The notes below the pieces were generated by a model, which saw only the letters and a program-made list of their open reading frames with translations, made no database searches and was not told the origin of the DNA. A program made the translations under genes and the position numbers. A stretch of DNA of 64,000 bases, from assembly GCA_938038815.1 (NCBI GenBank), contig CALHTF010000008.1, forward strand, positions 24,296 to 88,295, given 5' to 3'. The stretch is from an uncultured Acidimicrobiales bacterium (GTDB lineage: Bacteria > Actinomycetota > Acidimicrobiia > Acidimicrobiales > SHLQ01). Shown in pieces: positions 1,737-30,388 of this stretch (position 1 is the stretch's first letter; every line of letters starts with the position of its first letter).

Positions 1737-3083
1737 ATGGCTGCTGTTTCACACTTGGGTTCGCCGTCCGTTGCCCGCACCCGTTTGCGCCACGTGATCG
1801 CCGCAGTGCTGTTTGTGGCGACCGGTGGGGCCGCCGCAACGGCACTCGGCGCCACCGCGGCCGATGCCCAAGGTACGGCGGGCGATGGGCTGCTGTACCT
1901 CGACACCTACGCCCGAGGCGGCGACCCATCGACCCTCGGCCCAACGTGGGACTACGAGGTCACCGGAAACTGCGTCACTGGCTCGTTCACCCTGCAAGGC
2001 AATGTGGCCGAGAGTTTCGACTATGGCTCCTACGAAACCTATGTGATCAACGAAAAGTTCGACGCCGACGGCAACCTGTGCGTGTACACGGCGACACCGC
2101 TGCCGGTTGCGGGGTACACCCCGTTCCCGGCCACCGTCGACTTCCACTTTGACGAGTACCCCGACTCGGAGGCCAACGTCTCGTTCTCCATGCTTGGTGC
2201 CGGGGCAACCGGCGACATCGTCATCGGAAAGAACTCCTTCGATATCTACGAATACCAGTACGACCGCGGAAACTGGCCCAGCTCCGACGGGTGGACCCAA
2301 GACACCCTTCCGGCACTCTGGCAGTTCTCGATCACCTCGCCCTGCCTGGCCGAAGACATGGTGGTCGACATGGACCCCATCAACCGCAACTTCTTTAGCG
2401 GGCAGGTCGAACTCGGCGGGTTCACCTTGCTCGACACCAACAACGAAATCTGTACCTACGTGATCACCGATCTCGGTGACCCCGGTTGGGTGACCAAACA
2501 GCCTTACAGCGTGCCCTACACCCCCGCCCGCCGCATCTTGCCGAACTTCCTCGTTAGCGTGAACTTCACCGCGGTGAAGGTCAACCCGCCGCTGTATACC
2601 TGCGGCGGATTGGCCGTGACGGTGTATCTCGAGCACGGCGACCTGCCGACCGGGGGTAGCAACGTCATCCGGGGTACCGAAGGCGACGACGAGATAAAGG
2701 CCCTCGGCGGGAACGACACCATTTGCGGCCTCGGCGGCGACGACCGAATCAACGGCGGCTACGGCAACGATCGCATCATCGGCGGCAACGGCAACGATTG
2801 GCTGATCGGCAACAAAGGGAACGACTGGCTCTCAGGCGGCCTCGGCAACGACGTACTGCTCGGGCGAGCCGGCGAAGACGTGTTGGGCGGCGGCGGAGGC
2901 AACGACTACCTCGGCGGCGGCAAAGACGACGACCGGCTGTCCGGTGCTGAGGGCAACGACTTCCTGCTGGGCAACATGGGCGACGACCGGCTCAACGGCG
3001 GCGACGGTACCGACACCTGCGACGGCAGGGGCGGCATCGACATTGCGTACTCAACCTGTGAGACGAAGAAGAACATTCCGTAG
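1737..3083 (+). CDS. Secreted protein with C-terminal RTX-type (hemolysin-type) Ca2+-binding repeats
   Basis: It has an N-terminal signal-like segment (RLRHVIAAVLFVATGGAAATALGATAADA). About a dozen consecutive GGxGxD nonapeptides run from ~nt 2690-3040 (GGNDTICGLGGDDRINGGYGNDRIIGGNGNDWLIGNKGND...). Confidence 0.85.
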   Translation: MAAVSHLGSPSVARTRLRHVIAAVLFVATGGAAATALGATAADAQGTAGDGLLYLDTYARGGDPSTLGPTWDYEVTGNCVTGSFTLQGNVAESFDYGSYETYVINEKFDADGNLCVYTATPLPVAGYTPFPATVDFHFDEYPDSEANVSFSMLGAGATGDIVIGKNSFDIYEYQYDRGNWPSSDGWTQDTLPALWQFSITSPCLAEDMVVDMDPINRNFFSGQVELGGFTLLDTNNEICTYVITDLGDPGWVTKQPYSVPYTPARRILPNFLVSVNFTAVKVNPPLYTCGGLAVTVYLEHGDLPTGGSNVIRGTEGDDEIKALGGNDTICGLGGDDRINGGYGNDRIIGGNGNDWLIGNKGNDWLSGGLGNDVLLGRAGEDVLGGGGGNDYLGGGKDDDRLSGAEGNDFLLGNMGDDRLNGGDGTDTCDGRGGIDIAYSTCETKKNIP

Positions 3084-3105
3084 CCATCGCCCGTAAAGTT
3101 GACCG

Positions 3106-3753
3106 ATGCATCTTCCGCAACGGTTGCCGGTCGTCTTGGTTCACGGCGGCTTCTACGACGACATGACGACCACCGAGTTCTGGACCGATACGGGAGTGAG
3201 CGCGGCGTTGAACGCCGGCGGGACGACCTTCATCGCACCCCAACGTCCGACTAACCCGGTCTCGTGGGCTGAGGAAACCACCGCCTTGCTTACGGCGATC
3301 GACGACGCTTCGTTCGATTCGGTTTTGCTGGTCGGCGGCTCGCACGGTTGCGCTGTGGCGGCCCGGTTTGCGGTCGACTATCCCGACCGCGTCGCCCGGC
3401 TGTTGCTCGCTTGGCCGGCGACCGCCGGCGACCAGGTAACCGACGGACTGGCTCGGGTCGTCATCGAAGATGTGCACGGAACCGAAGCCGCCGACGCCCT
3501 GCTCGAGGGCGAAACGCTCTGGGGTGTGTCCGACGCCGAGCTCGGCGCGCTCGAAATGCCGCTGGTCATTTTTCCGTCGATGCCCGCCAACCATACCCAT
3601 CAGCGCGAGACCACGACTCGCCTGCTCCAGGCTCGACCCGACGGCTTTGTCGCCACCGGCGGCCCCGAACCGCTCGACAAGCAGTTCGACGAGTTTCGCG
3701 ACGGGTTTGTACAGATCGTCACGACTGTCGCCCAGGTCGAGCACGACGACTAG
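3106..3753 (+). CDS. Alpha/beta-fold hydrolase
   Basis: 215 aa with VVLVHGGF near the N-terminus and a nucleophile elbow GGSHG within LLVGGSHGCAVAARFAVDYPDRV. This layout is typical of alpha/beta hydrolases. Confidence 0.7.
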   Translation: MHLPQRLPVVLVHGGFYDDMTTTEFWTDTGVSAALNAGGTTFIAPQRPTNPVSWAEETTALLTAIDDASFDSVLLVGGSHGCAVAARFAVDYPDRVARLLLAWPATAGDQVTDGLARVVIEDVHGTEAADALLEGETLWGVSDAELGALEMPLVIFPSMPANHTHQRETTTRLLQARPDGFVATGGPEPLDKQFDEFRDGFVQIVTTVAQVEHDD

Positions 3754-16061: not shown

Positions 16062-17258
16062 GTGATGTCGAACGACTTCGCGCCCTGGCCGCCGGTTCGT
16101 TATGAAGAACTCGCGTGGGAGCCTTCGCACCCGGGGCTGATGTCGCGCACGCAGCAAAAGCGCCACCGCGGCCCGTATTCGTCGGCGGTCGTGCCCGAGA
16201 TTGCCTCGGTCGCGGGGCTCGGTCTCGCTCCCGAAACCTTGGCCGCCGCCGACGACGCATCGGCCGAGATCGTGCGCTTCGACGCGAACGCGGGCGAACT
16301 GTTGCCCTTTGCCGCATTGTTACTTCGTTCCGAGTCCGCCGCCTCGAGCCAGATCGAGAACCTGACCGCGTCGGCTCGGGCGATTGCCTTGGCCGAAATG
16401 CAGACGCCATCGACCACCAACGGCGACATCATCGTCGCGAACACCCGGGCCATGGAAGCAGCGATCGATCTCGCCGGTCGACTCGACGGCGACGCGATTC
16501 TCGAAACCCACCGGGCCCTGCTCGAAGTCAGCCAGCCATCGATTGTCGGCAAATGGCGAGATCAGCCCGTATGGATTGGCGGCACGGCGTTCGGGCCTCA
16601 CCTGGCCGATTTCGTACCTCCTCATCACAACCGGGTGGCCGACGCGATGGCCGACCTGGTGACGTTCATGGGCTCTGACGGTCACCCGGCACTCCCCCAC
16701 GCCGCTCTGGCCCACGCCCAGTTCGAGACCATTCACCCGTTCCCCGACGGCAACGGCCGAACCGGCCGGGCGCTGCTGCACGCGATGCTTCGGGCGACCG
16801 GACTGACCCGTAACGTGACGGTTCCGATTTCGGCCGGCTTACTGTCCGATGTCGACGCCTACTTTGCGGCTTTAGGCGCCTACCGCGAGGGCAACCCCGA
16901 CGAAGTGGTGCTCCTGGTGGCCGATGCGTCGTTTGTGGCTATCGCCAACGGCCGCCGGCTCGTCGAGGACCTGCGCTCGGCCAAGGCCGAATGGCTCGAC
17001 ACCGTGAAGGCCCGGTCAGACTCCGCCGTGTGGAAGATCATCGACCTGCTGACCCGGCAACCAATAATCGACAGTCCACTCGTGCAGCGCGAGACCGGGG
17101 TGGCCGCAGGAAACGCCCTCGCGGCGATCGAGCGCCTTGAGGATGCGGGGGTTATCCGCGAAACCAGCGGTCAGGGCCGAAACCGGATCTGGCAGGCCGA
17201 TCAGATCCTGGTGGCGCTCGATGAATTCAGCGCTCGAGCAGGACGACGGAGCGGCTAA
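16062..17258 (+). CDS. Fic-family protein (AMPylase-type), class with an N-terminal intramolecular inhibitory helix
   Basis: The Fic motif HPFPDGNGRTGR lies at nt 16734-16769. The inhibitory motif SSQIEN ([ST]xxxE[GN]) lies at nt 16344-16361. There is a C-terminal wHTH-like tail. The start is GTG 16062 or ATG 16065. Confidence 0.9.
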   Translation: MMSNDFAPWPPVRYEELAWEPSHPGLMSRTQQKRHRGPYSSAVVPEIASVAGLGLAPETLAAADDASAEIVRFDANAGELLPFAALLLRSESAASSQIENLTASARAIALAEMQTPSTTNGDIIVANTRAMEAAIDLAGRLDGDAILETHRALLEVSQPSIVGKWRDQPVWIGGTAFGPHLADFVPPHHNRVADAMADLVTFMGSDGHPALPHAALAHAQFETIHPFPDGNGRTGRALLHAMLRATGLTRNVTVPISAGLLSDVDAYFAALGAYREGNPDEVVLLVADASFVAIANGRRLVEDLRSAKAEWLDTVKARSDSAVWKIIDLLTRQPIIDSPLVQRETGVAAGNALAAIERLEDAGVIRETSGQGRNRIWQADQILVALDEFSARAGRRSG

Positions 17259-17279: not shown

Positions 17280-19730
17280 TCACGCCGCGTGCGGTCGTTG
17301 CACAGCGGAGTCGAGCGTGTTTGCCCCGCGGGTTGCCCAATCGTTGATGCATTCGGTCAGGGTGAGCGCCGGAGCGAAGTACCACCCTTGCAACGTTTCG
17401 AATCCAAGCTGACTCGTGAGCTGAGCCTGTTCGAGGGTCTCGACCCCTTCGGCAACGACCCGGAGGCCAAGGTCGTGCGCCAGGGTGACGATGGCGGCCA
17501 CGATGGCCCGCTCGCTGGCACTTTGGGTGAGCTTGGCGACAAAGCTTCGGTCGACCTTTACCGATGAGATCGGAAGATCGCGCAGGTGCGCAAGCGATGA
17601 GTAGCCGGTACCGAAATCATCGAGGCTGAGTGGGAAACCAGCGTCGGCGAGCGCGGTCAGCGATTGGAGACCCATCGGGCCGGCGTCGAAGGCCGCGCTT
17701 TCGGTGATCTCAATGCAGATCTGGCTGGGCCTCAGCTTGGCGGCCTGGACCGTCTCGGTCACGACCGAGACAAAGTCTGGTTGAGCAATACTGACCGGCG
17801 AGAAGTTGCACGCGACGTATGGCGGATCGAACGGCGCGAGCTTCTCGAGCAACGCTGCCCCGTGGCACGCCTTGCTGAACGCGATCTGGTCGAGTTCCCA
17901 CATGCGGTAGGTCTCGGAAATGGTTTCCAAAAAGCTGCTCGGTCCGAGGAACCCACCGGTATCGGTCTCGATGCGAACCAGTGCTTCGTAGCCCTTGGTT
18001 CGGTTGGTTACCGAATCGACAAGCGGTTGGAAATGCACGAGGAGTCGATCCTCGTCGATCGCTTCGGAGAGCAGTCGACGTTGCTGCGACTCGGTCGACG
18101 ACGCTTCGGCGAGGGCGCTGTCGAATACCTCGACGCGGTTGCGGCCCTTGTTTTTGGCGGCGTACAACGCAAGGTCCGCCTGTTGCAGAATGCGCTCTTC
18201 GTCGAGATTTTCGGATTGAAAGATCGACACGCCGATCGATGCGGAGATATCGAACCGTTCTTCGCCGACCCGGTACGGATCTTCGAGGGAGTCGCGTAGG
18301 CGTTCGGCGATCGACTTGACGGTCTCGACCGAGTCGATGTCGACCAACAAGGCAACGAACTCGTCGCCTCCTTGGCGCACGAGGAGATCTTGATCTCGCA
18401 GCTGGAACGCCAGGCGGCTGGCCGCGAGGCGTATGAGCTCGTCGCCGGCGCGGTGGCCGTACTGATCGTTGACCAGCTTGAACCCGTCGAGGTCGATGAA
18501 GCACGCCGCGACCGTGATGTCGAACGCTGAGGCCCGAAGTTCCTTTAGCCGTTGTTCGAGTTGGCGCCGGTTGGCCAGCCCAGTCAACTGGTCGTGCAGC
18601 GCCTGGGATCGAAGTTCGTCCACCGCCAGTCGTTCTTTGGTCACATCGTGGAACACGAACACCGACCCGAGCGCGACGTCGTCAGGGTCTCGAACCGGTT
18701 CGATTGAGACGGTGACGTACCGAGGTGCACCCTCGGCGACAACGACGAAGATGTCGCTCGGGCGCGGATCGTCGATGCTGGGCAACGCGTGGAAGTTGCC
18801 GTCGAGGTCGAGCAGGTGGAGGTCGCCCAGTACCACCTGGCTGGGGACCAACGTCTCGAGGCTAAAGAGGTTGTGGGCGACGTCGTTCACCATTGTGACG
18901 GCGCCGAAGGAGTCGGTAGCAATGATGCCGTCGCTCAGCCCGCGGACGATAGCCTCGGACATGCGCTTTTCGCGCTCGGCCATCATCGTGACTTCGGTGT
19001 CGCGTTCGGCGTTACGAACCGAGAGTACGAACCCGCCGATCGTTGGGTCGTCGGTGTGGTCGAGGCCAGTGACATCGGTCTGCACGAAGTCGCCGGACGC
19101 GTTGCGTAGGCGAACCTTTAACCGGTAGACCTCGAGTCCTTCGGCCATCCGCACCAACGTGTGGAGTGCGCTTTCGATATCGTCGGGATGTAGCAGATCG
19201 AGGCTGGACGTGCCGATAAGTTCGGCCGGGGTAACGCCGAGCAACGACCCGACCGCTCGGTTGCACCAGGTAATTGTGAAATCGGCGTCGAGGATCACCA
19301 CGCTGTCGCGCAGGCCTTCAAGGATCGCCTCGGCGTGCTCGGTGTTGGCGGCGGTTTGGTCGCGGACCACGCCGCCGATGATTCGGGCGAGGGCTTGCAG
19401 CGGCACACCGTGGGCCGACTCATGGGCGCCAACCACGGTTATCGCACCGATCGTTTCGCCAGTCGGTGCGACAATGGCGACCGAAATCTGATCCTCGGCG
19501 GTTTCGAGGCGAGCGGTTCCGGCGACCAACGTCATCTCGCTGGTCGTGAGCGGCCGTGGTTGGCTCACCCGATCGACCAGGTCGCTGGCCACCACAAACG
19601 CTCGGTCGCTTTCGAAGATCGCAATGTCGGCTTGCCCATCGAACAAGGCAGTCGCCGCACGCACACAATCCACTGCGACAGGGTGCCGCAGAAGCGCGGA
19701 CCGGGCCGCGAGTGATGGATTGGTCTTCAT
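17280..19730 (-). CDS. GAF-PAS-PAS-GGDEF-EAL signalling protein (c-di-GMP turnover)
   Basis: The GGDEF motif RQGGDEFV is intact. EAL-domain motifs are present (YEALVR, EITES, DDFGTGYSS). Upstream are PAS-like and GAF-like regions. I chose ATG 19730 (MKTNPS) because the extra 67 codons of the listed ORF look non-coding. Confidence 0.9.
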   Translation of the reverse strand: MKTNPSLAARSALLRHPVAVDCVRAATALFDGQADIAIFESDRAFVVASDLVDRVSQPRPLTTSEMTLVAGTARLETAEDQISVAIVAPTGETIGAITVVGAHESAHGVPLQALARIIGGVVRDQTAANTEHAEAILEGLRDSVVILDADFTITWCNRAVGSLLGVTPAELIGTSSLDLLHPDDIESALHTLVRMAEGLEVYRLKVRLRNASGDFVQTDVTGLDHTDDPTIGGFVLSVRNAERDTEVTMMAEREKRMSEAIVRGLSDGIIATDSFGAVTMVNDVAHNLFSLETLVPSQVVLGDLHLLDLDGNFHALPSIDDPRPSDIFVVVAEGAPRYVTVSIEPVRDPDDVALGSVFVFHDVTKERLAVDELRSQALHDQLTGLANRRQLEQRLKELRASAFDITVAACFIDLDGFKLVNDQYGHRAGDELIRLAASRLAFQLRDQDLLVRQGGDEFVALLVDIDSVETVKSIAERLRDSLEDPYRVGEERFDISASIGVSIFQSENLDEERILQQADLALYAAKNKGRNRVEVFDSALAEASSTESQQRRLLSEAIDEDRLLVHFQPLVDSVTNRTKGYEALVRIETDTGGFLGPSSFLETISETYRMWELDQIAFSKACHGAALLEKLAPFDPPYVACNFSPVSIAQPDFVSVVTETVQAAKLRPSQICIEITESAAFDAGPMGLQSLTALADAGFPLSLDDFGTGYSSLAHLRDLPISSVKVDRSFVAKLTQSASERAIVAAIVTLAHDLGLRVVAEGVETLEQAQLTSQLGFETLQGWYFAPALTLTECINDWATRGANTLDSAVQRPHAA

Positions 19731-19906
19731 ATCCGTTAGTAACGGCGCTACCGATGCCCTCCCTGAGAACAATTTTTGTGGTTCTACCTGCGATTCTCCA
19801 AGAATTTTCGGAATTGTCTGGACATTTTGGGGTTCGATGCCCCAAACGCTTTTGACCGCCGCACCGTGGGGCGGTTGCATGGAGGTAACAACCAGGGGGT
19901 AAGGCG

Positions 19907-22375
19907 ATGGATGCCAGGGGTAGAACCACACACGGGAACCGCCAAGGGAGACGACCCCGAGGTGGGCTGTTCTTTGCGGTGCTGATCGCCTTGGTCACGT
20001 CGCAACTCGCAGCGGTGGGCTTGGGTGCACCGGCGCAGGCGCTGCCGGCTCAACCCAACGATCCAATCGAGTGCCCCGACGGCCTCGACCCGATCGACGT
20101 CGACGGCGACGGGGTTGCCGATCGCTGCGTCGGTAAAACCCAATCAAAGAAGTGCAACGGCATCTCCAACACGAAGGCCTTTAAGAGGCCTGCCAAGCCA
20201 GGAGCACCCAAAGTGTCCTACGGCCGCGCCCAGCGGTGTCTGCGCCTCAACCAGATTCAAACCCTTGGCTCGCACAACAGCTACAAGCAGCACGTCACCC
20301 CCGGAATCTTTGACCTCCTCAAGGACTTTGACGAAGAGATTGCCCAAGGGTGGGAATACGGTCACTCGCCGTTGGCCGAACAGTTCAACTACGAGGGAAT
20401 CCGCCAGATCGAGCTCGACATCTTCGCCGACCCTGAGGGTGGCCGGTACGCCCAGCGGGTAGCGCTCGACGCGTTTGGCTTGCCGAACGATCCGCCGGCC
20501 GCCCTTTTTGAACCAGGCTTCAAGGTCCTCCACGTGCAAGACCTCGACTTTGAGACCAGTTGTCTCACGTTGATCGAGTGCCTCACCCAGGTTCGCAAAT
20601 GGTCCAAGGCCCACAAGCGCCACATGCCACTCGCCATTTTGATCGAAGGAAAAACCTCCCCCATCGCCGACCCGCTCGACCTGGGGTTCACGGTGCCTTT
20701 GCCGATCGGACCCGCCGAACTCGATGCGATCGACGCCGAGATCCGCTCGGTGTTTTCCGACGACGAAATGATCACCCCCGATGACGTGCGCCAAAACGGC
20801 ATGACCCTCGAAGAGTCGATCCTGGCCGACGGTTGGCCCACCTTGAAAGCCAGCCGCGGCAAGGTCATGTTCTTGATGGACAACGGCGGACAAATGCGGG
20901 AGGACTACATCGCCGCAACGCCGTCTCTGGAGGGCCGGGTCATGTTTACCAATGCAACGCCTGGTCAACCCGACGCCGCGTTTGTGAAGATGAACGACCC
21001 CCAAGGCAACGTCGAGGTCATCAAGGAATTCGTCCGCCAGGGCTATGTGGTGCGCACCCGATCCGACACCCCAACTGTCGAGGCTCGCTCGGGCGACACC
21101 ACCCGACTTGAGGCGGCCGTGGAGAGCGGCGCTCAGTGGATCAGCACCGACTATTCGGTACCCGGACGTGCCGAGTGGTCGGACTACGTGGCGCAACTTC
21201 CTGGCGGGCTGAGCCTGCGCTGCAACCCGGTCAACACGGGAAGGCACTGCGATGATCGGCGACTGGAGCGGGTAAAGGTCAAGCCGCGTGTCGAGCCACC
21301 GCCTCCCAACCAACAATTGCCCGACGGGTACGAGGGCCACGAGAGCGAGATCTACGACCAAGCCAAGCATTGGATTTGTTTGCCTGGATCGGCCGACGAC
21401 GTGTGTGCTCGTAACCTCGACACGAGTTGGATCGGCGCCGACGGCACGGTGACGGTGGTCGCCCACGAAGTTGCCGACGATCCGGTCGCCGACTGCTTCT
21501 ATCTGTACCCAACGGTGAGCGGTGACCCGGGGGCGAGCTCGGACCTCGACCCGGCCGAAGATGAAGAGATCTGGACAACCCTGAATCAGGCGGCCCGGTT
21601 AAGCGGCGAGTGTCGGGTGTTTGCCCCGGTCTATCGCCAACGCACGCTTGCCGCCCTTGGTGGGCTGGTCGAAACACCGCCCGAGACCCGCCAGCTTGCC
21701 TATGACGATGTGCTCGACGCGTTCAAGCAGTACGTGGTGAACCACAGCGACGGACGCCCGTTCGTACTCATTGGTCACTCTCAGGGAGCCGGCCTTCTCC
21801 AGCGACTCATCGCCGAAGAGATCGATGGCGAACCGCTGCTCGCCGACCGACTGTTGTCGGCGATGTTGCTCGGTTCGAGTGTTGCGCCGGACGCGTTCGA
21901 CAACATTTCGGCCTGCTCGTCCACCACCGACACGGGGTGTGTGATCTCCTACGCCACGTTCCGCGACACGTCTCCGCCGCCCAGCGGGTCGTTCTTCGGT
22001 CGGGCCGGCGATGGCCCGGCGTTGTGTGTCAACCCGGTCGATCCGGCGGCGGCAACATCGTTGACCACCCCATTCTTTGCCACCGGCGCTGGCCTGATCG
22101 GCGGTGGGGTGAGCCCGTTTGCCGACCCCAGCCGCGATGGCGAGATCACCACGCAGTTTTACGCCATGCCCGATTTCCTTGAAGTTCGATGCGTCGACGA
22201 CGGGACCTTTGGGTACCTCGAAATGAAGGTCCTCGCCGATCCTGACGATGCCCGAGCCGACGACATCGGTGGCGACCTGAACGAGGTGTGGGGCATGCAC
22301 CTGGTCGACGTAAACATCGCCATGGGTGCCCTAACGGCGCTGGTCGCTGCCCAGGGGGCCGCCCACGGCGGGTAG
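19907..22375 (+). CDS. Secreted two-domain enzyme: PI-PLC-like phosphodiesterase (X-box type) fused to a DUF3089-like alpha/beta hydrolase
   Basis: It has an N-terminal hydrophobic signal segment. LGSHNSY lies at nt 20267-20284 and WISTDY near aa 411-416 (PLC-like TIM barrel). The C-terminal half has the nucleophile elbow GHSQG at nt 21773-21787. Confidence 0.8.
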   Translation: MDARGRTTHGNRQGRRPRGGLFFAVLIALVTSQLAAVGLGAPAQALPAQPNDPIECPDGLDPIDVDGDGVADRCVGKTQSKKCNGISNTKAFKRPAKPGAPKVSYGRAQRCLRLNQIQTLGSHNSYKQHVTPGIFDLLKDFDEEIAQGWEYGHSPLAEQFNYEGIRQIELDIFADPEGGRYAQRVALDAFGLPNDPPAALFEPGFKVLHVQDLDFETSCLTLIECLTQVRKWSKAHKRHMPLAILIEGKTSPIADPLDLGFTVPLPIGPAELDAIDAEIRSVFSDDEMITPDDVRQNGMTLEESILADGWPTLKASRGKVMFLMDNGGQMREDYIAATPSLEGRVMFTNATPGQPDAAFVKMNDPQGNVEVIKEFVRQGYVVRTRSDTPTVEARSGDTTRLEAAVESGAQWISTDYSVPGRAEWSDYVAQLPGGLSLRCNPVNTGRHCDDRRLERVKVKPRVEPPPPNQQLPDGYEGHESEIYDQAKHWICLPGSADDVCARNLDTSWIGADGTVTVVAHEVADDPVADCFYLYPTVSGDPGASSDLDPAEDEEIWTTLNQAARLSGECRVFAPVYRQRTLAALGGLVETPPETRQLAYDDVLDAFKQYVVNHSDGRPFVLIGHSQGAGLLQRLIAEEIDGEPLLADRLLSAMLLGSSVAPDAFDNISACSSTTDTGCVISYATFRDTSPPPSGSFFGRAGDGPALCVNPVDPAAATSLTTPFFATGAGLIGGGVSPFADPSRDGEITTQFYAMPDFLEVRCVDDGTFGYLEMKVLADPDDARADDIGGDLNEVWGMHLVDVNIAMGALTALVAAQGAAHGG

Positions 22376-22377
22376 TT

Positions 22378-22421
22378 GTTTACCTGCTGTTCACCTTTCG
22401 CCCGATCAATGTTCATGCGCC
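22378..22421 (+). promoter_or_regulatory. PHO-box-like array: 11-nt direct-repeat units in phase upstream of pstS
   Basis: The units are GTTTACCTGCT (22378), GTTCACCTTTC (22389), a degenerate unit (22400) and GTTCATGCGCC (22411). All sit in exact 11-nt register. Each good unit matches 8-9 of 11 positions of the Streptomyces PhoP repeat consensus G(G/T)TCAYYYR(G/C)G. Confidence 0.55.
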
Positions 22422-22534: not shown

Positions 22535-23581
22535 ATGCTGAAGCTGCTGGGTCTGCTGGCGGTTTTTGCGATCGTCGGCGCAGCGGTCAACTTGATCGGC
22601 AACGACGACTCCACGGCCACCGCAGCGCCAACGACCTCGTCGGGCGAGTTCCGGGTTTCGGGATCGTCGACAGTTTTCCCGATCGTCCAACGTCAGGCTG
22701 AAGAGTTCAAGCTGATCGACCCCACCACCGCCATAGCGGTCGCTGGCCCCGGTTCGGGCGACGGCGCCCAGCAGTTCTGTGCGGGCGAAATCCCGATCGC
22801 CAATGCGTCTCGGACCTTCAAGGACGAAGAAATCGAGATCTGCGAAGCCAACGGGATCGAGTTCATCGAACTGCGCCGAGGCATCGACGGCATCAGCGTC
22901 ATCACGTCGATCGAAAACGATCTGGTCGAGTGCGTATCGTTCAACGACCTGTACGCGTTGATCTCCGAGGAAGCCATCAACACCGACAGTTGGGCCCAAG
23001 CCAACGCACTCACCGCCGAGTGGGACGGCACCGAATTCGACGACGTACGGCTCGACGTCTTTGGCCCTGGTGAAGAGTCGGGAACCTTCGACTCGTTCGC
23101 CGAAATTGTTATCGAGGGTGTGGCAAAGGGAAAGACCGGGCTCGACATCGAGGCCCGCGAGTTCACCAAAGAGATTCGCCCCGACTACACCTCGAGCCCC
23201 GATGACAACGTGGTGGTCGAAGGGATCGAAGGCAGCAAGTACTCCCTTGGCTGGGTCGGCTTCGCCTTTGCTCAAGAATCCGCTGCGGCGGGCCGGGCCA
23301 AGTTGCTCCAGGTTTCGAAGGAGGACGGGGGCGACTGTGTATCGCCAACCCCCGAGACCATTGCCTCGGCCGACTTCCCGATCGCTCGTTTCCTCTACAC
23401 CTACGTCAGCGTCGACGCCGCGGCGAACCAGCCAGGTGTTGCCGAGTTCGTCGATTACATGTTGAGCGACACCGGCCTCGAGTCGGTGAGTGCCGTCGGC
23501 TACATCGACCTCCCCGCCGACGAGCTGGAAAAGGTCGCAACCACGTGGGCCAACCGCACCCCGGGCCGGCAGTACGAATGA
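22535..23581 (+). CDS. pstS: Phosphate ABC transporter substrate-binding protein PstS
   Basis: It has a PstS-family PBP sequence (FRVSGSSTVFPIVQ...) and is followed by pstC, pstA and pstB. The N-terminal hydrophobic segment has no lipobox Cys. Confidence 0.85.
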   Translation: MLKLLGLLAVFAIVGAAVNLIGNDDSTATAAPTTSSGEFRVSGSSTVFPIVQRQAEEFKLIDPTTAIAVAGPGSGDGAQQFCAGEIPIANASRTFKDEEIEICEANGIEFIELRRGIDGISVITSIENDLVECVSFNDLYALISEEAINTDSWAQANALTAEWDGTEFDDVRLDVFGPGEESGTFDSFAEIVIEGVAKGKTGLDIEAREFTKEIRPDYTSSPDDNVVVEGIEGSKYSLGWVGFAFAQESAAAGRAKLLQVSKEDGGDCVSPTPETIASADFPIARFLYTYVSVDAAANQPGVAEFVDYMLSDTGLESVSAVGYIDLPADELEKVATTWANRTPGRQYE

Positions 23582-25005
23582 CCAGTCCCGCATGGCGACC
23601 AAGCCCGCCAACGGTTTGGGCCCGAGGCGCAGCCGCGGCGGTCGAGGGATTGCTGTACCTGGCAATCACCATCGTCGTGGCGATCGTCGAGTACTACGTC
23701 GCTGGCCCCCTGACCGATTTCGGACCGTCGAATTGGTGGATCGGTCTGGCCATCTTCGCCGCCTGGCAGGGCTGGCACTGGGCGGGAGCTCAAACCCCCG
23801 TCGGGTCCTATGTCGACCACTACGTCGCCGATGAGACCGGCGCTCCGGCATGCTTTTGGTGCGTCGTGGTTCGCCAGCTCACCCGGTTCGGCTTTCTGTA
23901 CGCCATTCCGTTCATATTGTTTAAGAACAACGTCGCACTGTTCGTCGCCCTGGCGGCGGTGGCTGGACTGATGATCAAGTTCCTGCCGAACACTCGGGCG
24001 CCGTGGGACCTCTTCGCCGGCACCCAACCCACCCAAACCCTGTCGATCGAACGTTCGTCGGCGCTGGCCGAGGTTCGGGTTCCGAGCGACTTCCGGCTCG
24101 GTGCTCAACGCTTGGCCGAGAACCGGCGGGCGAAGAACATCGTGGCGCTGGCGGGGCTTTCGTCGGTGGTGGTTACCGCCCTAATCGTCCGGTCGATCTT
24201 CTCCGAGGCGTACCTTTTCCTCGCCGCCGACGAGTTCAACTTCAGCGTGCTTCGCGATATCGGCTGGTTCCCCCGCCGAGGCAAGTTCGACCTGCAAACC
24301 CTCTTTGTCGGAACGCTGTGGGTCACCGGTATCGCTATCGTCGTCGCCGCGCCGATCGGACTCGGGGTCGCCATCTACCTCTCGGAATACGCCTCGACGA
24401 AGGTACGAACCTACGTGAAGCCGATCATCGAAACGTTGGCGAGTATTCCGTCGGTGGTCCTCGGTTTCTTTGCCATCTCGTTCATCTCGACCTCGGTGCT
24501 CAAACCAACCCTTGGAGCACTTGGCGTAGACATCGGAATCTTTAGTCTGCTCAGCGCGGGCATCGGCGTAGGCATCTTGACCGTACCGATCATTGCGTCG
24601 ATCGCCGAAGATGCGATGCGGGCGGTGCCACGCGAGCTGCGAGAAGCGAGTTACGGACTGGGTGCTCGCAAAGCAACCACCGCCCTGCGAGTGGTGTTCC
24701 CGGCAGCGCTTTCGGGTATCTCAGCCGCGATCATCGTGGCGATCTCTCGAGCGATCGGCGAAACGATGGTGGTCTTCATCGCAGCCGGTGGTTCTGGTGG
24801 TGCGATCTATGAAATCGACCCGACCAAGCCCGGCCAGACCATCACCGCCGCCATGGCATCGTTGGGCGCCGGAACCGACAGTGTCGCCGGCTCGGGTATT
24901 GCGTTCCAGAGTCTGTACTTCCTCGGAGCGCTGCTGTTCTTGCTGACCCTTGGACTCAACGTGATGTCCGACGCCATCGTTCGCCGATTCCGGCAGGTGT
25001 ACTAA
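23578..25005 (+). CDS. pstC: Phosphate ABC transporter permease PstC with an N-terminal extension of about 150 aa (RDD-like membrane domain)
   Basis: ATG 23578 overlaps the pstS TGA (ATGA). The C-terminal ~320 aa is a typical PstC (EDAMRAVPRELREASYGLGA). The N-terminal extension has 3-4 TM helices, an early Arg and a terminal PWDLFAGT, as in RDD-family proteins. Confidence 0.85.
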   Translation: MTSPAWRPSPPTVWARGAAAAVEGLLYLAITIVVAIVEYYVAGPLTDFGPSNWWIGLAIFAAWQGWHWAGAQTPVGSYVDHYVADETGAPACFWCVVVRQLTRFGFLYAIPFILFKNNVALFVALAAVAGLMIKFLPNTRAPWDLFAGTQPTQTLSIERSSALAEVRVPSDFRLGAQRLAENRRAKNIVALAGLSSVVVTALIVRSIFSEAYLFLAADEFNFSVLRDIGWFPRRGKFDLQTLFVGTLWVTGIAIVVAAPIGLGVAIYLSEYASTKVRTYVKPIIETLASIPSVVLGFFAISFISTSVLKPTLGALGVDIGIFSLLSAGIGVGILTVPIIASIAEDAMRAVPRELREASYGLGARKATTALRVVFPAALSGISAAIIVAISRAIGETMVVFIAAGGSGGAIYEIDPTKPGQTITAAMASLGAGTDSVAGSGIAFQSLYFLGALLFLLTLGLNVMSDAIVRRFRQVY

Positions 25006-25007
25006 CC

Positions 25008-25958
25008 ATGACAACCACCACTACTCCCCCGTCAGGAGAGTCCGCTCACTCCGGTCTCACGCTCGACAGCCTGCGCAAGCGGCGCTCCGACGACCTGTTT
25101 GGCCAGTCATTTCAAGGACTCTTGCTGTTGGCGGTAGCGATCGCGGGCGCCATGGTGCTGGCGGTACTCATCAGTGTGCTCATCGATTCGGCCGACATCC
25201 TCGGATCGCGTTTCTGGAGCTTTTTGACCAACGCGTCGTCGAGTGACCCGGCGGTCGCCGGTGTGGCGCAAGGCATCCGGGGCACGGTGATCATCGCCGC
25301 GATGGTGACCTTCCTGGCGTTCCCCATCGGAATCGGCGCCGCCGTTTACCTTGAGGAATACGCCAGCGACAACCCCTTCACCCGACTCATCGAGGTCACG
25401 GTTCGAAACCTCGCCGGTGTTCCATCGATCGTGTACGGCCTGCTCGGTTTGGCGATCTTTGTGCAGTCACTGCGGGGCATTACCGGCGGCTCGTCGGTCA
25501 TCTCGGCCGGCATCACCCTGTCGATTCTCGTGCTGCCGATCGTGATCATCACGGCGAGCGAAGCAATCCGAGCCGTGCCGAGCGCCCTTCGCGAAGGTGC
25601 CTACGGACTTGGCGCAACCCAGTGGGAAGTCATCCGAACTCAGGTCCTGCCCGCGGCGCTCCCCGGAATCTTGACCGGCGCGGTTCTCTCAATCGCTCGG
25701 GCCCTCGGCGAGGCGGCGCCTCTGTTGGTTATCGGCGCCGCACCGTTCTATTCGACAGGCGTGAAGTCTCAGCTCGAACAGCTCCAAGGCGCCTTTACTG
25801 CCCTGCCCATGAACGTCGCGACCTTCGCCAAACTGCCCGCCGACACGTGGGCGGGCCATGCGGCAGCGGCCAGTGTCGTCGTGCTCATCTTGGTCTTTGT
25901 CATCAACCTCGTGGCGATCATCGCCCGAGCCCGCATTTCCAAGAAGCTCGGCCGCTAG
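25008..25958 (+). CDS. pstA: Phosphate ABC transporter permease PstA
   Basis: It starts 3 nt after the pstC stop. It has the PstA-type EAA loop [21 protein letters not shown] and six TM segments. Confidence 0.9.
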
Positions 25959-26017: not shown

Positions 26018-26845
26018 GTGACTTCAACCTTTGAACCGCCTTCGGCAGAGTCCGAAACACCCAACCCGCCCACGGTCTTCACCGTGCGCGACCTCAACGT
26101 GTACTACGGCGACTTCCGCGCCGTGGTCGATGTTGGACTCGAGGTCTACGAGCGCGAGATCACTGCATTCATCGGTCCGTCGGGTTGCGGCAAGTCGACC
26201 GTGCTCCGCTGCTTTAACCGGATGAACGACCTGATCGACATCGCTCGGGTCGAAGGCACGCTGTTGTTCCGCGACATCGACCTGTACCACCCCGATGTCG
26301 ATCCGGTCGCGGTTCGTCGCCGCATCGGCATGGTGTTCCAGAAGCCGAACCCGTTCCCGAAGTCGATCTATGAAAACGTCGCCTTTGGCCCCAAGATCGC
26401 CGGAATCGGCGGCGACCTCGACGAACTGGTCGAAACGTCGCTCCAGGGTGCGGGCCTGTGGGACGAAGTGAAGGACCGGCTCGATTCTTCGGCCCTCGGC
26501 TTGTCCGGCGGGCAGCAGCAGCGGCTGTGTATCGCCCGGGCCATCGCGGTACAGCCCGACGTGTTGTTGATGGACGAACCGTGCTCGGCCCTTGACCCGA
26601 TCGCAACAGGAACCATCGAAGAACTCATGCGCGAGATGAAGGATCGCTACACGATCGTCATCGTGACTCATAACATGCAACAGGCGGCCCGGGTCAGCGA
26701 CCGAACCGCCTTCTTCACCGCGGAGGCCGACGAGGCCACCGGTCAACGCCGCGGCAAGCTGGTCGAATACGACGACACCGGGTTGATCTTTTCGAACCCG
26801 AACGACGAACGCACCGAAGCCTACGTGACAGGACGGTTTGGCTAA
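26018..26845 (+). CDS. pstB: Phosphate ABC transporter ATP-binding protein PstB
   Basis: It has Walker [10 protein letters not shown], signature LSGGQQQR, Walker B LLMDEP and the PstB-typical N-terminus DLNVYYG. I chose GTG 26018, because the listed 407-aa ORF overlaps pstA. The exact start is uncertain. Confidence 0.9.
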
Positions 26846-28308
26846 TGAACGAAATTCGTACCGAACTCAACATCCGCCTCGAAGCCATCCGCTCGCTGCT
26901 GCTCGAATCGATGGCGCTGGTCGCCACCCGCGTCGACGAGGTCACCGAAGTGTTCCTCAGCCGCGATGTTGCCGGCGCCGACCGTATCATCTCCGCCGAC
27001 GACGAATTCGACCTCATTGCCCAGCAGATCGAAGACCTGTGCATCGAGACACTCATCCGTGAGCAACCGGTGGCGAGCGATTTACGCACCATCGTCGCCG
27101 CGATGCACATGAACTCCGACATCGAGCGCAGCGGCGACTTGTGCGCCAACATCGCCAAGGCGGTTGGTCGCCTCCAAGGAATCCAAGTAGACGACAAGGT
27201 TCGCGACCTGATCGTACGTATGGCCGCCCAAGCCAAGGTGCTCTTCGAACGCTCGGTTGAAGCCTACGACGGGCTCGACGCCGAACTCGCGAAATCGATC
27301 GACGCGCTCGACGACGTACTCGACGACCTGCATCGCGACTACATCCAGATGGTGATCCAGGAAGCCAAACACGGCGACATGGTCCCCCAACAGTCGCTGC
27401 AGTTTGCGCTGATCGGCCGGTTCTACGAACGAATTGGCGACCACGCAGAGAACCTGGGCGAGCGCATTCGTTACATCGTCGACGGATGGACCCCTGAACG
27501 CGAGGGCGCCGAACGGGCGAAGGCGCGAGCCGAAGCCGAGTCGCCCGAGATCCAAGACGAAGAAGTCCGCAGCCGTGGTCTTGCCGTGATCGACTCGATC
27601 AGTGAAGAACGACGCATCGATGCCACCCGACGGGACTTTGTGGCCAACGTGAGCCACGAGCTCAAGACGCCGGTCGGTGCTGTGGTACTGCTCGCCGAAA
27701 CGATGCAGGACGCCAACGAGGAAGAGCGAACACGCCTCGTCGAGCATCTCAACCAAGAAGCGCGTCGAATGGAAAGCATTATCGACGACCTGCTCGAACT
27801 CACCCGACTCGAAGAGTTCGACGCCAGCAAAGAGGTTGTCTCGCTTGACGAAACCGTGATGATGGCCGTCGACCTCGCCCGCGGCTTCGCCGAAGCCCGG
27901 AGCATCGATGTCGCCGTAGTTGGTATGCCGAGCTCGGTTTCGATCGAGGGAGATCAGCGCCAGATCGTTCGTGCACTGGTCAACCTGATCGACAACGCGG
28001 CCCGCTACTCCGAGTCCGGCACCCAGGTGACCGTTACCATCGATCCCCTGGTCGACGCGGTCGACATCGCGGTGAGCGACACCGGCATCGGTATTGCCCG
28101 ACCCGAACTCGAACGGATCTTCGAACGGTTCTACCGGGTCGACCGGGCCCGCAGCCGGGCCACCGGCGGCACCGGCCTTGGCCTGTCGATCGTGCGCCAT
28201 GTCGCCGACAACCATCAGGGCCGCATCCTGGTTGACTCAAAACCCGACGAGGGCTCGACCTTCACCTTGCAGCTACCCAAGCATGAGGCGGACGCTGCGT
28301 CGTCATGA
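26845..28308 (+). CDS. PhoU-domain / histidine-kinase fusion protein (cytoplasmic PhoR/SenX3-like kinase core with N-terminal PhoU)
   Basis: Residues ~1-213 form a two-repeat PhoU fold (DDEFD...DIERSGD; ERIGDHAENLGERI). The kinase core follows: H-box FVANVSHELKTP (His codon at nt 27655), N-box LIDNAARYS, G1 DTGIGI and G2 GGTGLGLSIV. There is no hydrophobic segment. The start overlaps the pstB stop (TAATG). Confidence 0.85.
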   Translation: MNEIRTELNIRLEAIRSLLLESMALVATRVDEVTEVFLSRDVAGADRIISADDEFDLIAQQIEDLCIETLIREQPVASDLRTIVAAMHMNSDIERSGDLCANIAKAVGRLQGIQVDDKVRDLIVRMAAQAKVLFERSVEAYDGLDAELAKSIDALDDVLDDLHRDYIQMVIQEAKHGDMVPQQSLQFALIGRFYERIGDHAENLGERIRYIVDGWTPEREGAERAKARAEAESPEIQDEEVRSRGLAVIDSISEERRIDATRRDFVANVSHELKTPVGAVVLLAETMQDANEEERTRLVEHLNQEARRMESIIDDLLELTRLEEFDASKEVVSLDETVMMAVDLARGFAEARSIDVAVVGMPSSVSIEGDQRQIVRALVNLIDNAARYSESGTQVTVTIDPLVDAVDIAVSDTGIGIARPELERIFERFYRVDRARSRATGGTGLGLSIVRHVADNHQGRILVDSKPDEGSTFTLQLPKHEADAASS

Positions 28309-28997
28309 CCGACACGACCGTGCTCGTTGTCGACGATGAGCCCGCGTTTCGCGAAGGCCTGAACCTGGCCCTGCGCAAAGAGGGTTTCGAAGTGCACCTC
28401 GCCGAAGACGGCGAGCGGGCAGTCGAATTGTTCGCGTCGATCAAGCCCCAGATCGTGTTGCTCGACGTCATGTTGCCTCGAATGTCGGGGATCGACGTGT
28501 GCCGCCATATCCGGGCCGAGGGCAACACCCCGGTCATCATGGTGTCGGCCCGCTCAGAGGAGATCGATGCCGTCGTCGCCCTGGAAGTGGGGGCCGACGA
28601 TTACATCACCAAGCCCTACCGGCTTCGTGAATTGGTGGCCCGAATGCGCACCGTGTTGCGCCGTAGTGGCCAAAGCGAAGCCCCGGCCGAGGACAAAGAC
28701 GTCCTGGTCGTCGACGACCTCAGTCTCGACCCCGAACGGCACGAGGTACGCCGAGCCGGCGAACTGATCGAGTTGCCGCTCAAGGAGTTTCAGGTACTTG
28801 CGTTGTTGATGGCGAACGCCGGATACGTGGTTACCCGTGACGATCTGATCAACCGGGTGTGGGGATACGACTACTACGGCGACACCAAGACCCTCGATGT
28901 TCACATCAAGCGTCTGCGCTCAAAACTCGAGGATGATCCTGCCTCGCCGTCCAAGATCGTTACGATCCGTGGACTCGGCTACAAGATGACCGCCTGA
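28305..28997 (+). CDS. OmpR/PhoB-family response regulator (RegX3/PhoP-like)
   Basis: It has a receiver domain (VLVVDDEP...LLDVMLP...KPY) plus a winged-helix trans_reg_C (TLDVHIKRLRSKLE...IVTIRGLGYKM). The ATG overlaps the kinase TGA (ATGA). Confidence 0.9.
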   Translation: MTDTTVLVVDDEPAFREGLNLALRKEGFEVHLAEDGERAVELFASIKPQIVLLDVMLPRMSGIDVCRHIRAEGNTPVIMVSARSEEIDAVVALEVGADDYITKPYRLRELVARMRTVLRRSGQSEAPAEDKDVLVVDDLSLDPERHEVRRAGELIELPLKEFQVLALLMANAGYVVTRDDLINRVWGYDYYGDTKTLDVHIKRLRSKLEDDPASPSKIVTIRGLGYKMTA

Positions 28998-28999
28998 GG

Positions 29000-30388
29000 T
29001 TAGTCGTACAACAAGTACGGCTCTCGCTGCTCGAGGAATGGCGTGAAGGACTCCTGCATCTCGGCGAGGATTTGTTCGGCCGCCACTCCGCCATCTAGGG
29101 CCCGCCGGAGCCGTTTGGTACCCGACAACAGATCGAACGCACTCTGGCGGTTGATGATCGACCCTTCGCCCGCCGCGCTGGCTTGGGTTTGGAACGCCGA
29201 ATGAACATGCACCGTCGTGGCTACCGGGTCAAAGATGTACATATCGTCGAATTCCAGCAGGACTCCGTGGAGTTCTTCGCCGGTCAGTCGGGGCTCGCCG
29301 CTGTTGCGGGGCAGTTTGCGAGGCGAGAAGGTGGTTGGGACAAACCGGACTCCCGGCAATCCAACCGCATTGAGCGTCTCGGCAAGAGCATCGCCGTCGG
29401 CCCATGGCGCACCAAACCGAAAGAACGGCTCGTCGGTGCCGCCGCCATAGCTCAGCTCGGTGGCTTCAAACAGGACCGAACCCGGGTAGGCCAACGCCGA
29501 GGGGAACTCCGGTAGTCCTGAGCTAGGCGGTATCCAGGTCAGGCCCGTGTCGGGCCAGAGCATGTCGCGGGTCCAGCCGTCGAGTTCGACAACTTCAACG
29601 TTGAGCCCCTCGACGTTGTCCATCCAGGCTTCACCGACCACCGCTCGGGCCAACTCACCGCTGGTCATGGCGTACTGCGAAGGCACTGGATACGGGCCAA
29701 TAAACGATGTTTGGGGTTCTTCGAGCACATAACCGCCCACCGTGTCGCCCCCGACCGGGTTGGGCCGGTCAAGCACCACGAACCGGGTGCCGGTCTGGGC
29801 GGCGGTTTCCATCGCCAAACCCATGGTGGCGATATAGGTGTAGAAACGGCTGCCCACATCTTGAAGATCAAAAACCAGAACATCGATATCGGCGAGGTGG
29901 TCAGCTGTTGGCTGGCGGATCTCGCCGTACAAGCTCACGATCGGTAGGCCACTGCCCGGATCGAGCGAGTCGCCGATCTCCTCACCCGCCGCGCCCTTAC
30001 CTCGCAGGCCGTGCTCGGGGGCAAAGATCCGCACCAACTCCACGTTGGGCGCATTGTTGAGAACATCGACGAGGTGTTCACCGCCGACGGTCGATGCCTG
30101 GTTGGCGATCAGACCAACCCGTTGACCATCCAGAATGGCGAAGTTGCTGGCCACGAGGCGGGCCGCGCCGGTGGTGACCGCCGGTGGCGGCAGCGTTGTG
30201 GTAGTACTCGTGGTCGGGGTTGGCGTGGTTGGCGGTGCCGCCGCCGTGGTCGGTGCTACCGAAGTGGCGGCGGTGGCCGGGTTCGAGGTCGGCGCAAAGG
30301 AAGGACGGGCGTCCTCTGGCACCCCGCCACATGCGGTGAGCACGAGGCAAAAGCCCAGGGAGACAACGAGCGGACGCCATCGATTCAC
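29000..30388 (-). CDS. DUF1343-family lipoprotein (NamZ-like exo-beta-N-acetylmuramidase family)
   Basis: It has the lipobox LVLTAC, a Pro/Thr-rich linker, and DUF1343-type motifs (GLIANQAS, FAPEHGLRG, VFDLQDVGSRFYTY). Confidence 0.75.
   Translation of the reverse strand: MNRWRPLVVSLGFCLVLTACGGVPEDARPSFAPTSNPATAATSVAPTTAAAPPTTPTPTTSTTTTLPPPAVTTGAARLVASNFAILDGQRVGLIANQASTVGGEHLVDVLNNAPNVELVRIFAPEHGLRGKGAAGEEIGDSLDPGSGLPIVSLYGEIRQPTADHLADIDVLVFDLQDVGSRFYTYIATMGLAMETAAQTGTRFVVLDRPNPVGGDTVGGYVLEEPQTSFIGPYPVPSQYAMTSGELARAVVGEAWMDNVEGLNVEVVELDGWTRDMLWPDTGLTWIPPSSGLPEFPSALAYPGSVLFEATELSYGGGTDEPFFRFGAPWADGDALAETLNAVGLPGVRFVPTTFSPRKLPRNSGEPRLTGEELHGVLLEFDDMYIFDPVATTVHVHSAFQTQASAAGEGSIINRQSAFDLLSGTKRLRRALDGGVAAEQILAEMQESFTPFLEQREPYLLYD

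Follow-up and report, generated by a model that had tools for sequence, protein, structure and literature searches.

Introduction

Among the described systems, the seven-component Pho system of Escherichia coli and Salmonella (PstS, PstC, PstA, PstB, PhoU, PhoR and PhoB) has the same parts and the same logic as the operon reported here. In E. coli, PhoU interacts with PstB as well as with the PAS domain of PhoR (PMC4423584); in Salmonella, a further contact links helix 6 of PhoU, at residue R184, to the kinase domain of PhoR (PMC9239213). The perception of phosphate by PhoR has been an open question for decades; a periplasmic sensor is lacking in this kinase, and it is disputed what PAS, PhoU and PstB each contribute (PMC4415409, PMC10055408, PMC9239213). 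The present work concerns a 64-kb stretch of contig CALHTF010000008.1 from an uncultured Acidimicrobiales bacterium, hereafter the window, in which PhoU and a PhoR-type kinase are encoded by one gene within a pst operon. Residue numbers refer to this 487-aa fusion protein unless stated otherwise.

Both in the enteric systems and in the window, a Pst transporter is combined with a PhoU module and a bifunctional kinase of the HisKA type, and the OmpR-family regulator controls its own transporter operon. In contrast to them, the window carries PhoU and PhoR in one chain that has no transmembrane (TM) segment, and both kinase and regulator are located inside the pst operon. Moreover, the window kinase has no PAS domain, i.e. 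the domain to which enteric PhoU binds to repress PhoR (PMC4423584, PMC9239213). Outside the Acidimicrobiia, the closest kinase cores (45–52% identity) belong to Streptomyces, Nocardia, Mycobacterium and other Actinomycetota. Here, the Streptomyces PhoR–PhoP and Mycobacterium SenX3–RegX3 pairs provide the described examples, with regulators that are 52–58% identical to that of the window and a PHO box built on the same GTTCACC core. However, these kinases are membrane-anchored and contain a PAS domain, phoU is a separate and usually divergent gene, and pst is found elsewhere in the genome.

Unfused pstSCAB-phoU-phoR-phoP operons of Acidimicrobiia, represented by L079 (Acidimicrobiales chromosome OZ224042.1) and L008, have the same gene order on one strand, with identities of 70–73% for PstB, 42% for PhoU and 43–51% for the kinase core. 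In these operons PhoU and the kinase are two genes and the kinase has an N-terminal TM segment and a PAS_4 domain, whereas the window has one gene without either. Two further fused proteins, P0125 and P0126, resemble the window protein in that PhoU is N-terminal to the same type of kinase and no TM segment is present, but they have kept a PAS-sized segment. Finally, PhoU also serves as a regulatory module in Na/Pi (inorganic phosphate) cotransporter–PhoU proteins (PF02690 + PF01895) and in the PhoU/PitR clades that go with particular importers (PMC13170248); there it is coupled to a transporter, while in the window it is coupled to a signalling enzyme.

A first-pass annotation of this DNA had regarded the architecture as experimentally uncharacterised, and a full-text literature search, which did not reach most subscription journals, found neither an experiment on nor a description of a PhoU–kinase fusion. 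A 2026 survey of PhoU proteins kept only two-PhoU-domain proteins lacking any further known Pfam domain (PMC13170248), and under this rule such fusions would fall outside its data set. The novelty is one of recognition and interpretation rather than of a new fold or chemistry, as the architecture is visible in domain databases and in the NCBI annotation.

Results and discussion

The fusion protein and its domains

The open reading frame (ORF) is uninterrupted over 26845..28308 on the forward strand and encodes 487 aa in the order PhoU (two repeats), tether, HisKA and HATPase_c. Its parts are located as follows:

26845..27486, forward strand: PhoU domain, two repeats forming a six-helix bundle, residues 1–214 (PF01895 twice, TIGR02135 above cutoff, AlphaFold2 model and Protein Data Bank (PDB) matches)
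27487..27573, forward strand: PhoU tail helix (217–230) followed by a variable acidic tether (about 228–243), from alignment with free PhoU and AlphaFold2
27574..27816, forward strand: remnant of the last PAS β-strand, residues 244–254 (RGLAVIDSISE, with a degenerate D-I/V-T-E end), and DHp domain with phospho-acceptor H271
27655–27657, forward strand: codon of H271, the predicted phospho-acceptor
27832..28308, forward strand: CA (ATP-binding) domain (330–480), C-terminal tail and stop codon

A Pfam scan returned two PhoU repeats (E 5e-32), HisKA at 262–324 (E 2e-18) and HATPase_c at 369–480 (E 9e-31), and no match to a PAS family. The NCBIfam equivalog model TIGR02135 (phoU_full) scored 148.0 bits against a cutoff of 130.25, covering residues 11–214 and profile positions 6–209 of 212. 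The PhoU motifs are found at 52–56 (DDEFD), 92–98 (DIERSGD) and 195–208 (ERIGDHAENLGERI), and the kinase boxes at 265–276 (H-box, FVANVSHELKTP), 381–389 (N-box, LIDNAARYS), 412–417 (G1, DTGIGI) and 441–450 (G2, GGTGLGLSIV). No TM segment was detected in the fusion protein: the highest Kyte–Doolittle mean over 19 residues was 1.12 and no window of that length exceeded 1.6, whereas in the same scan PstC and PstA, as membrane controls, had 107 and 67 windows above this value.

The N-terminal part thus has the full-length equivalog score, the two-repeat six-helix bundle and the acidic (E/D)xxxD metal-site motifs in both repeats that characterize PhoU, while it deviates from a free-standing PhoU of ~210–240 aa in being the N-terminal 45% of a 487-aa kinase. 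Similarly, the C-terminal part shares with PhoR/SenX3 the DHp histidine with ExxT, the N, G1 and G2 boxes, and a neighbourhood with a PhoP/RegX3-type regulator and phoU linkage; it lacks the N-terminal TM anchor and the PAS domain ahead of DHp, and stays below the equivalog scores. The respective NCBIfam values were 257 (cutoff 400) for PnpS, 234 (334) for PhoR_proteo and 158 (390) for PRK11006. These low scores are attributed to the fact that only the C-terminal halves of the models match.

The first-pass annotation had proposed that adaptor and PhoR-type kinase form one polypeptide, devoid of a TM helix and a PAS domain, and had suggested a Pfam scan for two PhoU repeats, HisKA and HATPase_c. 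The continuous ORF with all of these domains bears this out, with PhoU additionally above the TIGR02135 cutoff; every motif that it quoted is present at its place, the hydropathy and Pfam results agree with the absence of TM and PAS segments, and the kinase belongs to the actinobacterial PhoR/SenX3 group, its nearest relatives outside the Acidimicrobiia being phoR/senX3–phoP pairs.

Spread of the fused family

Other, independent assemblies carry an identical protein, and the three-domain architecture is shared by at least 120 protein clusters of 59–86% identity and 453–512 aa, these being the 120 best clusters in a search of 5.8 billion proteins. Where named, the sources are metagenome-assembled genomes of Acidimicrobiales, Actinomycetia or Actinomycetota, and the public label of the fused proteins is "phosphate signaling complex protein PhoU". 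The junction segment 244–262 is among the most conserved stretches of the protein. Within the family, H271, E272, T275, N384, D412, G414, G416, G441–G446 and the PhoU motifs are invariant, as are G245, A247 and I249 of the remnant 244–254. H271-E272-x-x-T275 corresponds to the ExxT phosphatase motif of HisKA kinases. In the PhoU part, the metal-site residues D52, D56, E94, D98, D156, D160, E195 and D199 were invariant in 120/120 fused members, and E. coli PhoU D58, N62, E100, D104, D161, D165, E200 and D204 align with these eight positions in order.

At the level of 50%-identity representatives, the fused architecture reduces to a handful of proteins: P0121, P0123 and P0124, all PAS-less, P0128 with one PhoU repeat, and P0125 and P0126. 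P0124 (506 aa) stands for a second PAS-less fused lineage. P0128 (396 aa) resembles P0124 minus one PhoU repeat, and both stem from short contigs; for P0128 an assembly or deletion artefact is not excluded. A scan of genome contigs mostly returned ordinary PhoR/SenX3 kinases, with two fused loci among the matches listed. Judged by protein searches and a few contig look-ups, the fused family is lineage-restricted rather than widespread. One fused locus, L002 (CAXMSE010000014.1), is labelled "uncultured Gammaproteobacteria", an assignment that was discarded as probable mis-binning: its genes are 54–66% identical to those of the window, and a UvrD/PcrA-like helicase follows downstream as in Acidimicrobiales loci.

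Origin of the fusion

Comparison with the unfused operons allows locating both ends of the junction. Residues 1 to ~227 of the fusion are collinear with the entire free PhoU of L079 and L008, including the tail DGWxPExxGAxRAKAR, and residues 244 onward are collinear with the unfused kinase from the last PAS strand (RGLAVIDSISEERRIDATRRDF in the window, LGAIAQIHDFTDLEHHNAIRRDF in L079 and GGAVAIIEDVTERSRLDAVRTDF in L008). Specifically, RGLAVIDSISE (244–254) aligns with GAIAQIHDFTD in L079 and GAVAIIEDVTE in L008, which are the ends of the PAS_4 matches. About 10 residues of the PAS domain, i.e. its last strand, remain, and ~15 poorly conserved acidic residues fill the junction. From these alignments, the fusion is read as PhoU joined to a kinase that begins at the last PAS strand, the deletion having removed the TM helix and the PAS domain almost completely. 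An ancestral pstSCAB-phoU-phoR-phoP operon would accordingly have had its neighbouring phoU and phoR joined in frame, with loss of the single TM helix and nearly the whole of PAS.

P0125 (585 aa) and P0126 (577 aa) are PhoU–kinase fusions with a segment of ~100 residues between PhoU and HisKA, and neither protein has a hydrophobic stretch. The segment has the size of a PAS domain and aligns collinearly with the PAS region of unfused relatives; no PAS match was obtained for it at a Pfam threshold of E ≤0.001. On contigs from two sources (L082, 4047–5804; L083, 1141–2898), the P0125 gene is flanked by pstB and a regulator gene. Neighbour-joining trees were calculated separately for the PhoU and kinase parts. 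The window clade was monophyletic in both trees, its kinase falling within the Acidimicrobiia PhoR group, and P0124, P0125 and P0126 were found among unfused sequences, P0125 beside L079 in both. This topology suggests at least three independent phoU–kinase fusions, a count that is provisional since the trees were not bootstrapped and carry no support values. P0125 and P0126 are probably separate fusion events and not direct ancestors of the window clade. They are possible natural single-chain models of the PhoU–PAS contact.

Predicted structure and candidate interface

The AlphaFold2 monomer model, calculated from an alignment of 54 sequences, has a mean predicted local distance difference test score (pLDDT) of 82.9 and a predicted template modelling score (pTM) of 0.50. 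It comprises a PhoU six-helix bundle over residues 3–213 (pLDDT mostly >90), the tail helix 217–230, a disordered segment 231–252 (pLDDT <50 over 236–258), DHp helices at 253–287 and 292–324, and an α/β CA domain at 330–480. The remnant 244–254 is left without structural context in the monomer despite its conservation. By sequence, the PhoU part (residues 4–237) matches the PDB entries 1xwm, 4q25, 1t72 and 2i0m, and Foldseek and PDB matches to the kinase part (246–482) are the cores of HK853, VicK and WalK; no solved structure among these matches spans both PhoU and a kinase.

In the fused family, the spacing between the last PhoU motif and the H-box assumes almost all values between 67 and 79 residues, and additionally 85, and residues 228–241 are unconserved. 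Such variation would not be tolerated by a rigid coiled-coil transmitter and would favour signalling by a tethered domain that makes and breaks contacts with DHp/CA, rather than through a continuous helix. Several residues are near-invariant in the fused clade and almost never found in 52 unfused PhoU and 78 unfused kinases: R29, V33, E73, N90, G108, Q111 and E202 in PhoU, and R295, E324 and R376 in the kinase. Several of these are charge changes of opposite sign across the two halves. The residues may outline a new contact within the chain or stem from common ancestry alone, and serve as a lead rather than as evidence of an interface. The contacts known from enteric proteins were mapped as well. 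E. coli PhoU A147/R148, which contact the PAS domain of PhoR, map to a position that is variable in fused and unfused Acidimicrobiia, and Salmonella PhoU R184 maps to a loop that has one sequence in the fused proteins and another in the unfused ones; as the comparison covered a single fused clade and six unfused sequences, the difference is inseparable from shared ancestry.

Operon organization and neighbourhood

The fused gene is embedded in a pst operon with the following features, all on the forward strand:

22378..22395, forward strand: PHO-box-like tandem direct repeat GTTTACCtgctGTTCACC with an 11-bp period, 140 nucleotides (nt) upstream of the pstS ATG (pattern match)
22535..23581, forward strand: pstS, phosphate-binding lipoprotein / solute-binding protein (PBP_like_2, E 7e-31), whose stop overlaps the pstC start as ATGA
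23578..25005, forward strand: pstC permease, 475 aa (BPD_transp_1 at 261–472)
25008..25958, forward strand: pstA permease (BPD_transp_1, E 1.4e-19)
26018..26845, forward strand: pstB ATPase, 275 aa, GTG start at 26018 (ABC_tran, E 2.4e-28); the public gene call on the same contig is also 275 aa
28305..28997, forward strand: OmpR/PhoB-family response regulator, PhoP/RegX3-type, translationally coupled to the kinase (Response_reg and Trans_reg_C)

The stop codon of pstB (TAA) and the ATG of the fusion share base 26845 (TAATG; GGCTAATGAAC), and the stop of the fusion overlaps the regulator start as ATGA at 28305–28308, so that the coupling on both sides described in the first-pass annotation is found again here. 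Its claim of a single pstSCAB–kinase–regulator operon without a separate phoU likewise stands within the 64 kb: neither tblastn nor a PhoU hidden Markov model (HMM) detected a second PhoU domain, PhoR-like kinase, OmpR-type regulator or Na/Pi cotransporter elsewhere in the window. The custom PhoU HMM, run against 739 six-frame ORFs of the window, had a single match at E 3e-93, the next being at E 1.8. Domains, gene boundaries and the candidate PHO box all fit a Pst operon under Pho control.

The pattern GTTYACCN4GTTYACC has one exact match in the window (22378..22395) and none in any of 100 shuffles, although its significance is somewhat inflated as the pattern was written after viewing the sequence and is partly post hoc. 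It also occurs upstream of pstS in L084, with a near-match in L060, and the PHO box of S. coelicolor has GTTCACC as its core (PMC4415409). The repeat is a candidate binding site for the operon's own regulator.

Fused genes in L001, L084, L088 and L089 are, as in the window, located directly after pstB, with an overlap or a gap of 10–19 nt in most loci. The PstB of L001 shows the same 70–73% identity to the window protein as those of L079 and L008. In L079, the unfused operon consists of pstS-C-A-B, a phoU of 243 aa, a kinase of 428 aa with an N-terminal hydrophobic segment followed by PAS_4, HisKA and HATPase_c, and the regulator. L008 is organized identically except that phoU is doubled, the two copies (240 and 263 aa) lying in tandem with an overlap at 1944–3382 between pstB and the TM–PAS kinase. 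The closest kinase cores in ~70 actinobacterial loci are followed by a homologous regulator, mostly with a divergent phoU adjacent (~45 loci among the relatives outside Acidimicrobiia), which is the phoU/phoRP (senX3-regX3) layout. Regulator identity rises to 58–74% in Acidimicrobiia loci. Beside the fused locus, both L084 (3742–5554) and L002 (6028–7948) contain a PF02690 gene and a divergent PhoU-family gene of 219–224 aa, and genomes with the fusion may therefore hold other PhoU-domain proteins.

Some neighbouring features deserve mention. PstC of the window has an extra N-terminal membrane extension of ~150–165 aa (residues 1–165, nt 23578–24072), which is shared by L084, L088 and L089, all fused loci linked to pst, but not by the unfused L079 and L060 or by L087. 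An identification of this extension as RDD (11–148) was rejected: the score of 20.6 bits was below the Pfam cutoff of 24.1 and was obtained for the window copy only. Upstream of pstS, 19907–22375 (forward strand) encodes a secreted-looking protein of 822 aa with PI-PLC-C1 (Ca2+-dependent phosphatidylinositol-specific phospholipase C, E 5e-125) and DUF3089 (α/β hydrolase) domains, whose stop lies 3 nt before the PHO-box-like repeat. By its domains, it may be a phosphate-scavenging phospholipase; no PHO-box match was present in the 200 nt upstream of this gene. At the other end, the regulator stop at 28997 is separated by 2 nt from the stop of a convergent NamZ exo-muramidase gene (29000–30388, reverse strand), leaving no space for an intergenic terminator. 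Further upstream, a PAS-GGDEF-EAL cyclic-di-GMP protein of 882 aa (17280–19931, reverse strand) and a Fic-domain protein (16062–17258, forward strand) have no evident link to the Pho operon.

Proposed mechanism and alternative explanations

The gene is attributed, with fair confidence, to a sensor kinase of the Pho regulon whose PhoU domain would bind PstB and adjust the balance of kinase and phosphatase activities by direct contact with DHp/CA. The link of the PhoU domain to PstB in this locus is the adjacency of its gene to pstB, and control through PstB is plausible. The product would be a soluble protein consisting of the PhoU six-helix bundle, a flexible tether of ~20–25 residues and a bifunctional kinase/phosphatase DHp–CA core. 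As the sole input module, the PhoU domain would dock on the PstB encoded by the adjacent upstream gene and read transporter activity, as free PhoU does in E. coli. When phosphate is plentiful, a direct but non-rigid contact with the PhoU domain would keep the DHp–CA core acting as a phosphatase. Once transport stalls, the restraint would be lifted, H271 would be autophosphorylated, and the phosphoryl group would pass to the co-translated OmpR-type regulator, which would then bind the GTTCACC-type PHO box upstream of pstS and upregulate the operon as a whole. After the loss of PAS, the kinase-domain contact described for Salmonella is the only known PhoU–PhoR contact able to persist in the fusion. 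A broader proposition is that PhoU alone suffices as input of a PhoR-type kinase, controlling DHp–CA directly without PAS domain, anchor or rigid helix, and that the contact between PhoU and the core is primary and ancestral; we regard this as tentative, and rather less than an even bet.

Several observations weigh against the proposed control through PstB. Streptomyces pst and phoU mutants are reportedly without constitutive Pho induction (PMC4415409), and the wiring of E. coli may consequently not hold in Actinomycetota. In L002 the fused gene and its regulator have no pst within 8 kb upstream and adjoin instead a Na/Pi cotransporter and a PhoU-family gene, and in L087 the fused gene is divergent from pst; operon coupling is thus not obligatory. 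The absence of other phoU or phoR genes applies, for the source organism, to the 64-kb window only. With a pTM of 0.50, the structural model provides no confident PhoU–kinase interface or inter-domain geometry. The first-pass annotation had gone further, taking the state of the transporter as sole sensory input and PstB contact as sole means of membrane recruitment; both points are suppositions at present. Moreover, both the disordered, length-variable tether and the second, divergent PhoU-family gene beside the Na/Pi cotransporter in the same genome as the L084 fusion leave a direct cytoplasmic input open. The main rival explanation, unlikely but serious, is built on such an input, namely the same fused Pho kinase with a PhoU domain that senses cytoplasmic Pi or metal–phosphate at its acidic clusters, contact with PstB being unneeded. 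It would agree with the invariance of the eight metal-site residues across the 120 fused proteins, which likewise leaves such an input open, with the full solubility of the protein, with the positions of the L002 and L087 genes, and with the response of Salmonella PhoR to an intracellular signal of phosphorus insufficiency (PMC10055408). However, the metal-site residues are equally invariant in free-standing PhoU, i.e. they are nothing specific to the fusion, and most loci keep the gene right after pstB, which fits stoichiometric co-assembly with the transporter.

A different assignment of the kinase–regulator pair, as an MtrAB- or WalKR-like and not Pho-specific pair that came to lie beside pst, its PhoU part serving chiefly to restrain the transporter, is suggested by the NCBIfam searches: MtrA and YycF are the best regulator models, WalK and MtrB appear in the kinase list, and no equivalog cutoff was reached (MtrA 255 of 300; PhoB 224 of 296 for the regulator). 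Still, PnpS and proteobacterial PhoR head the kinase list, and the closest homologues in other Actinomycetota adjoin a divergent phoU as in the Streptomyces phoU/phoRP layout. In addition, unfused relatives have the PhoR-type TM–PAS form at the same place in the operon and a PHO-box-type repeat precedes pstS, making this assignment very improbable. As to the long ORF itself, the general experience that odd fusions in metagenomes can be errors would allow for an artefact (frameshift, missed stop or chimeric assembly) or a pseudogene in decay, the real genes being a free phoU and a truncated kinase, and the first-pass annotation had suggested a check for a missed stop or frameshift. This explanation has no specific support and is refuted by conservation, its residual probability being negligible: the identical protein on separate assemblies, the family of at least 120 clusters at 59–86% identity with the same length and domains (all 120 of the best clusters), the highly conserved junction 244–262 and the fully intact catalytic residues exclude a frameshift or pseudogene.

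Implications

A lineage in which PhoU is wired to the kinase while anchor and PAS are dropped amounts to a natural deletion experiment. As far as can be judged from sequence, it indicates that the membrane anchor and the PAS domain would be dispensable for a working Pho sensor, and that PhoU would be tied physically and functionally to the kinase in Actinomycetota, where genetics was ambiguous. The conserved family together with its unfused and PAS-retaining relatives makes this less of a one-off oddity and provides a firmer evolutionary case. If PhoU alone does suffice as the input, the repeated fusions would show that the contact from PhoU to the kinase core, so far only a secondary contact in Salmonella, is the ancestral route, and the protein would be a soluble single-chain handle for rebuilding the signal from PstSCAB to the kinase in vitro.

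For genome surveys, it should be noted that the label "PhoU" hides the kinase and that organisms of this kind would be scored as PhoR-negative. With a soluble, self-contained protein, structural work and reconstitution with PstB or PstSCAB should be easier than with membrane-bound PhoR, and this natural variant could make the question of how PhoR senses phosphate more testable.

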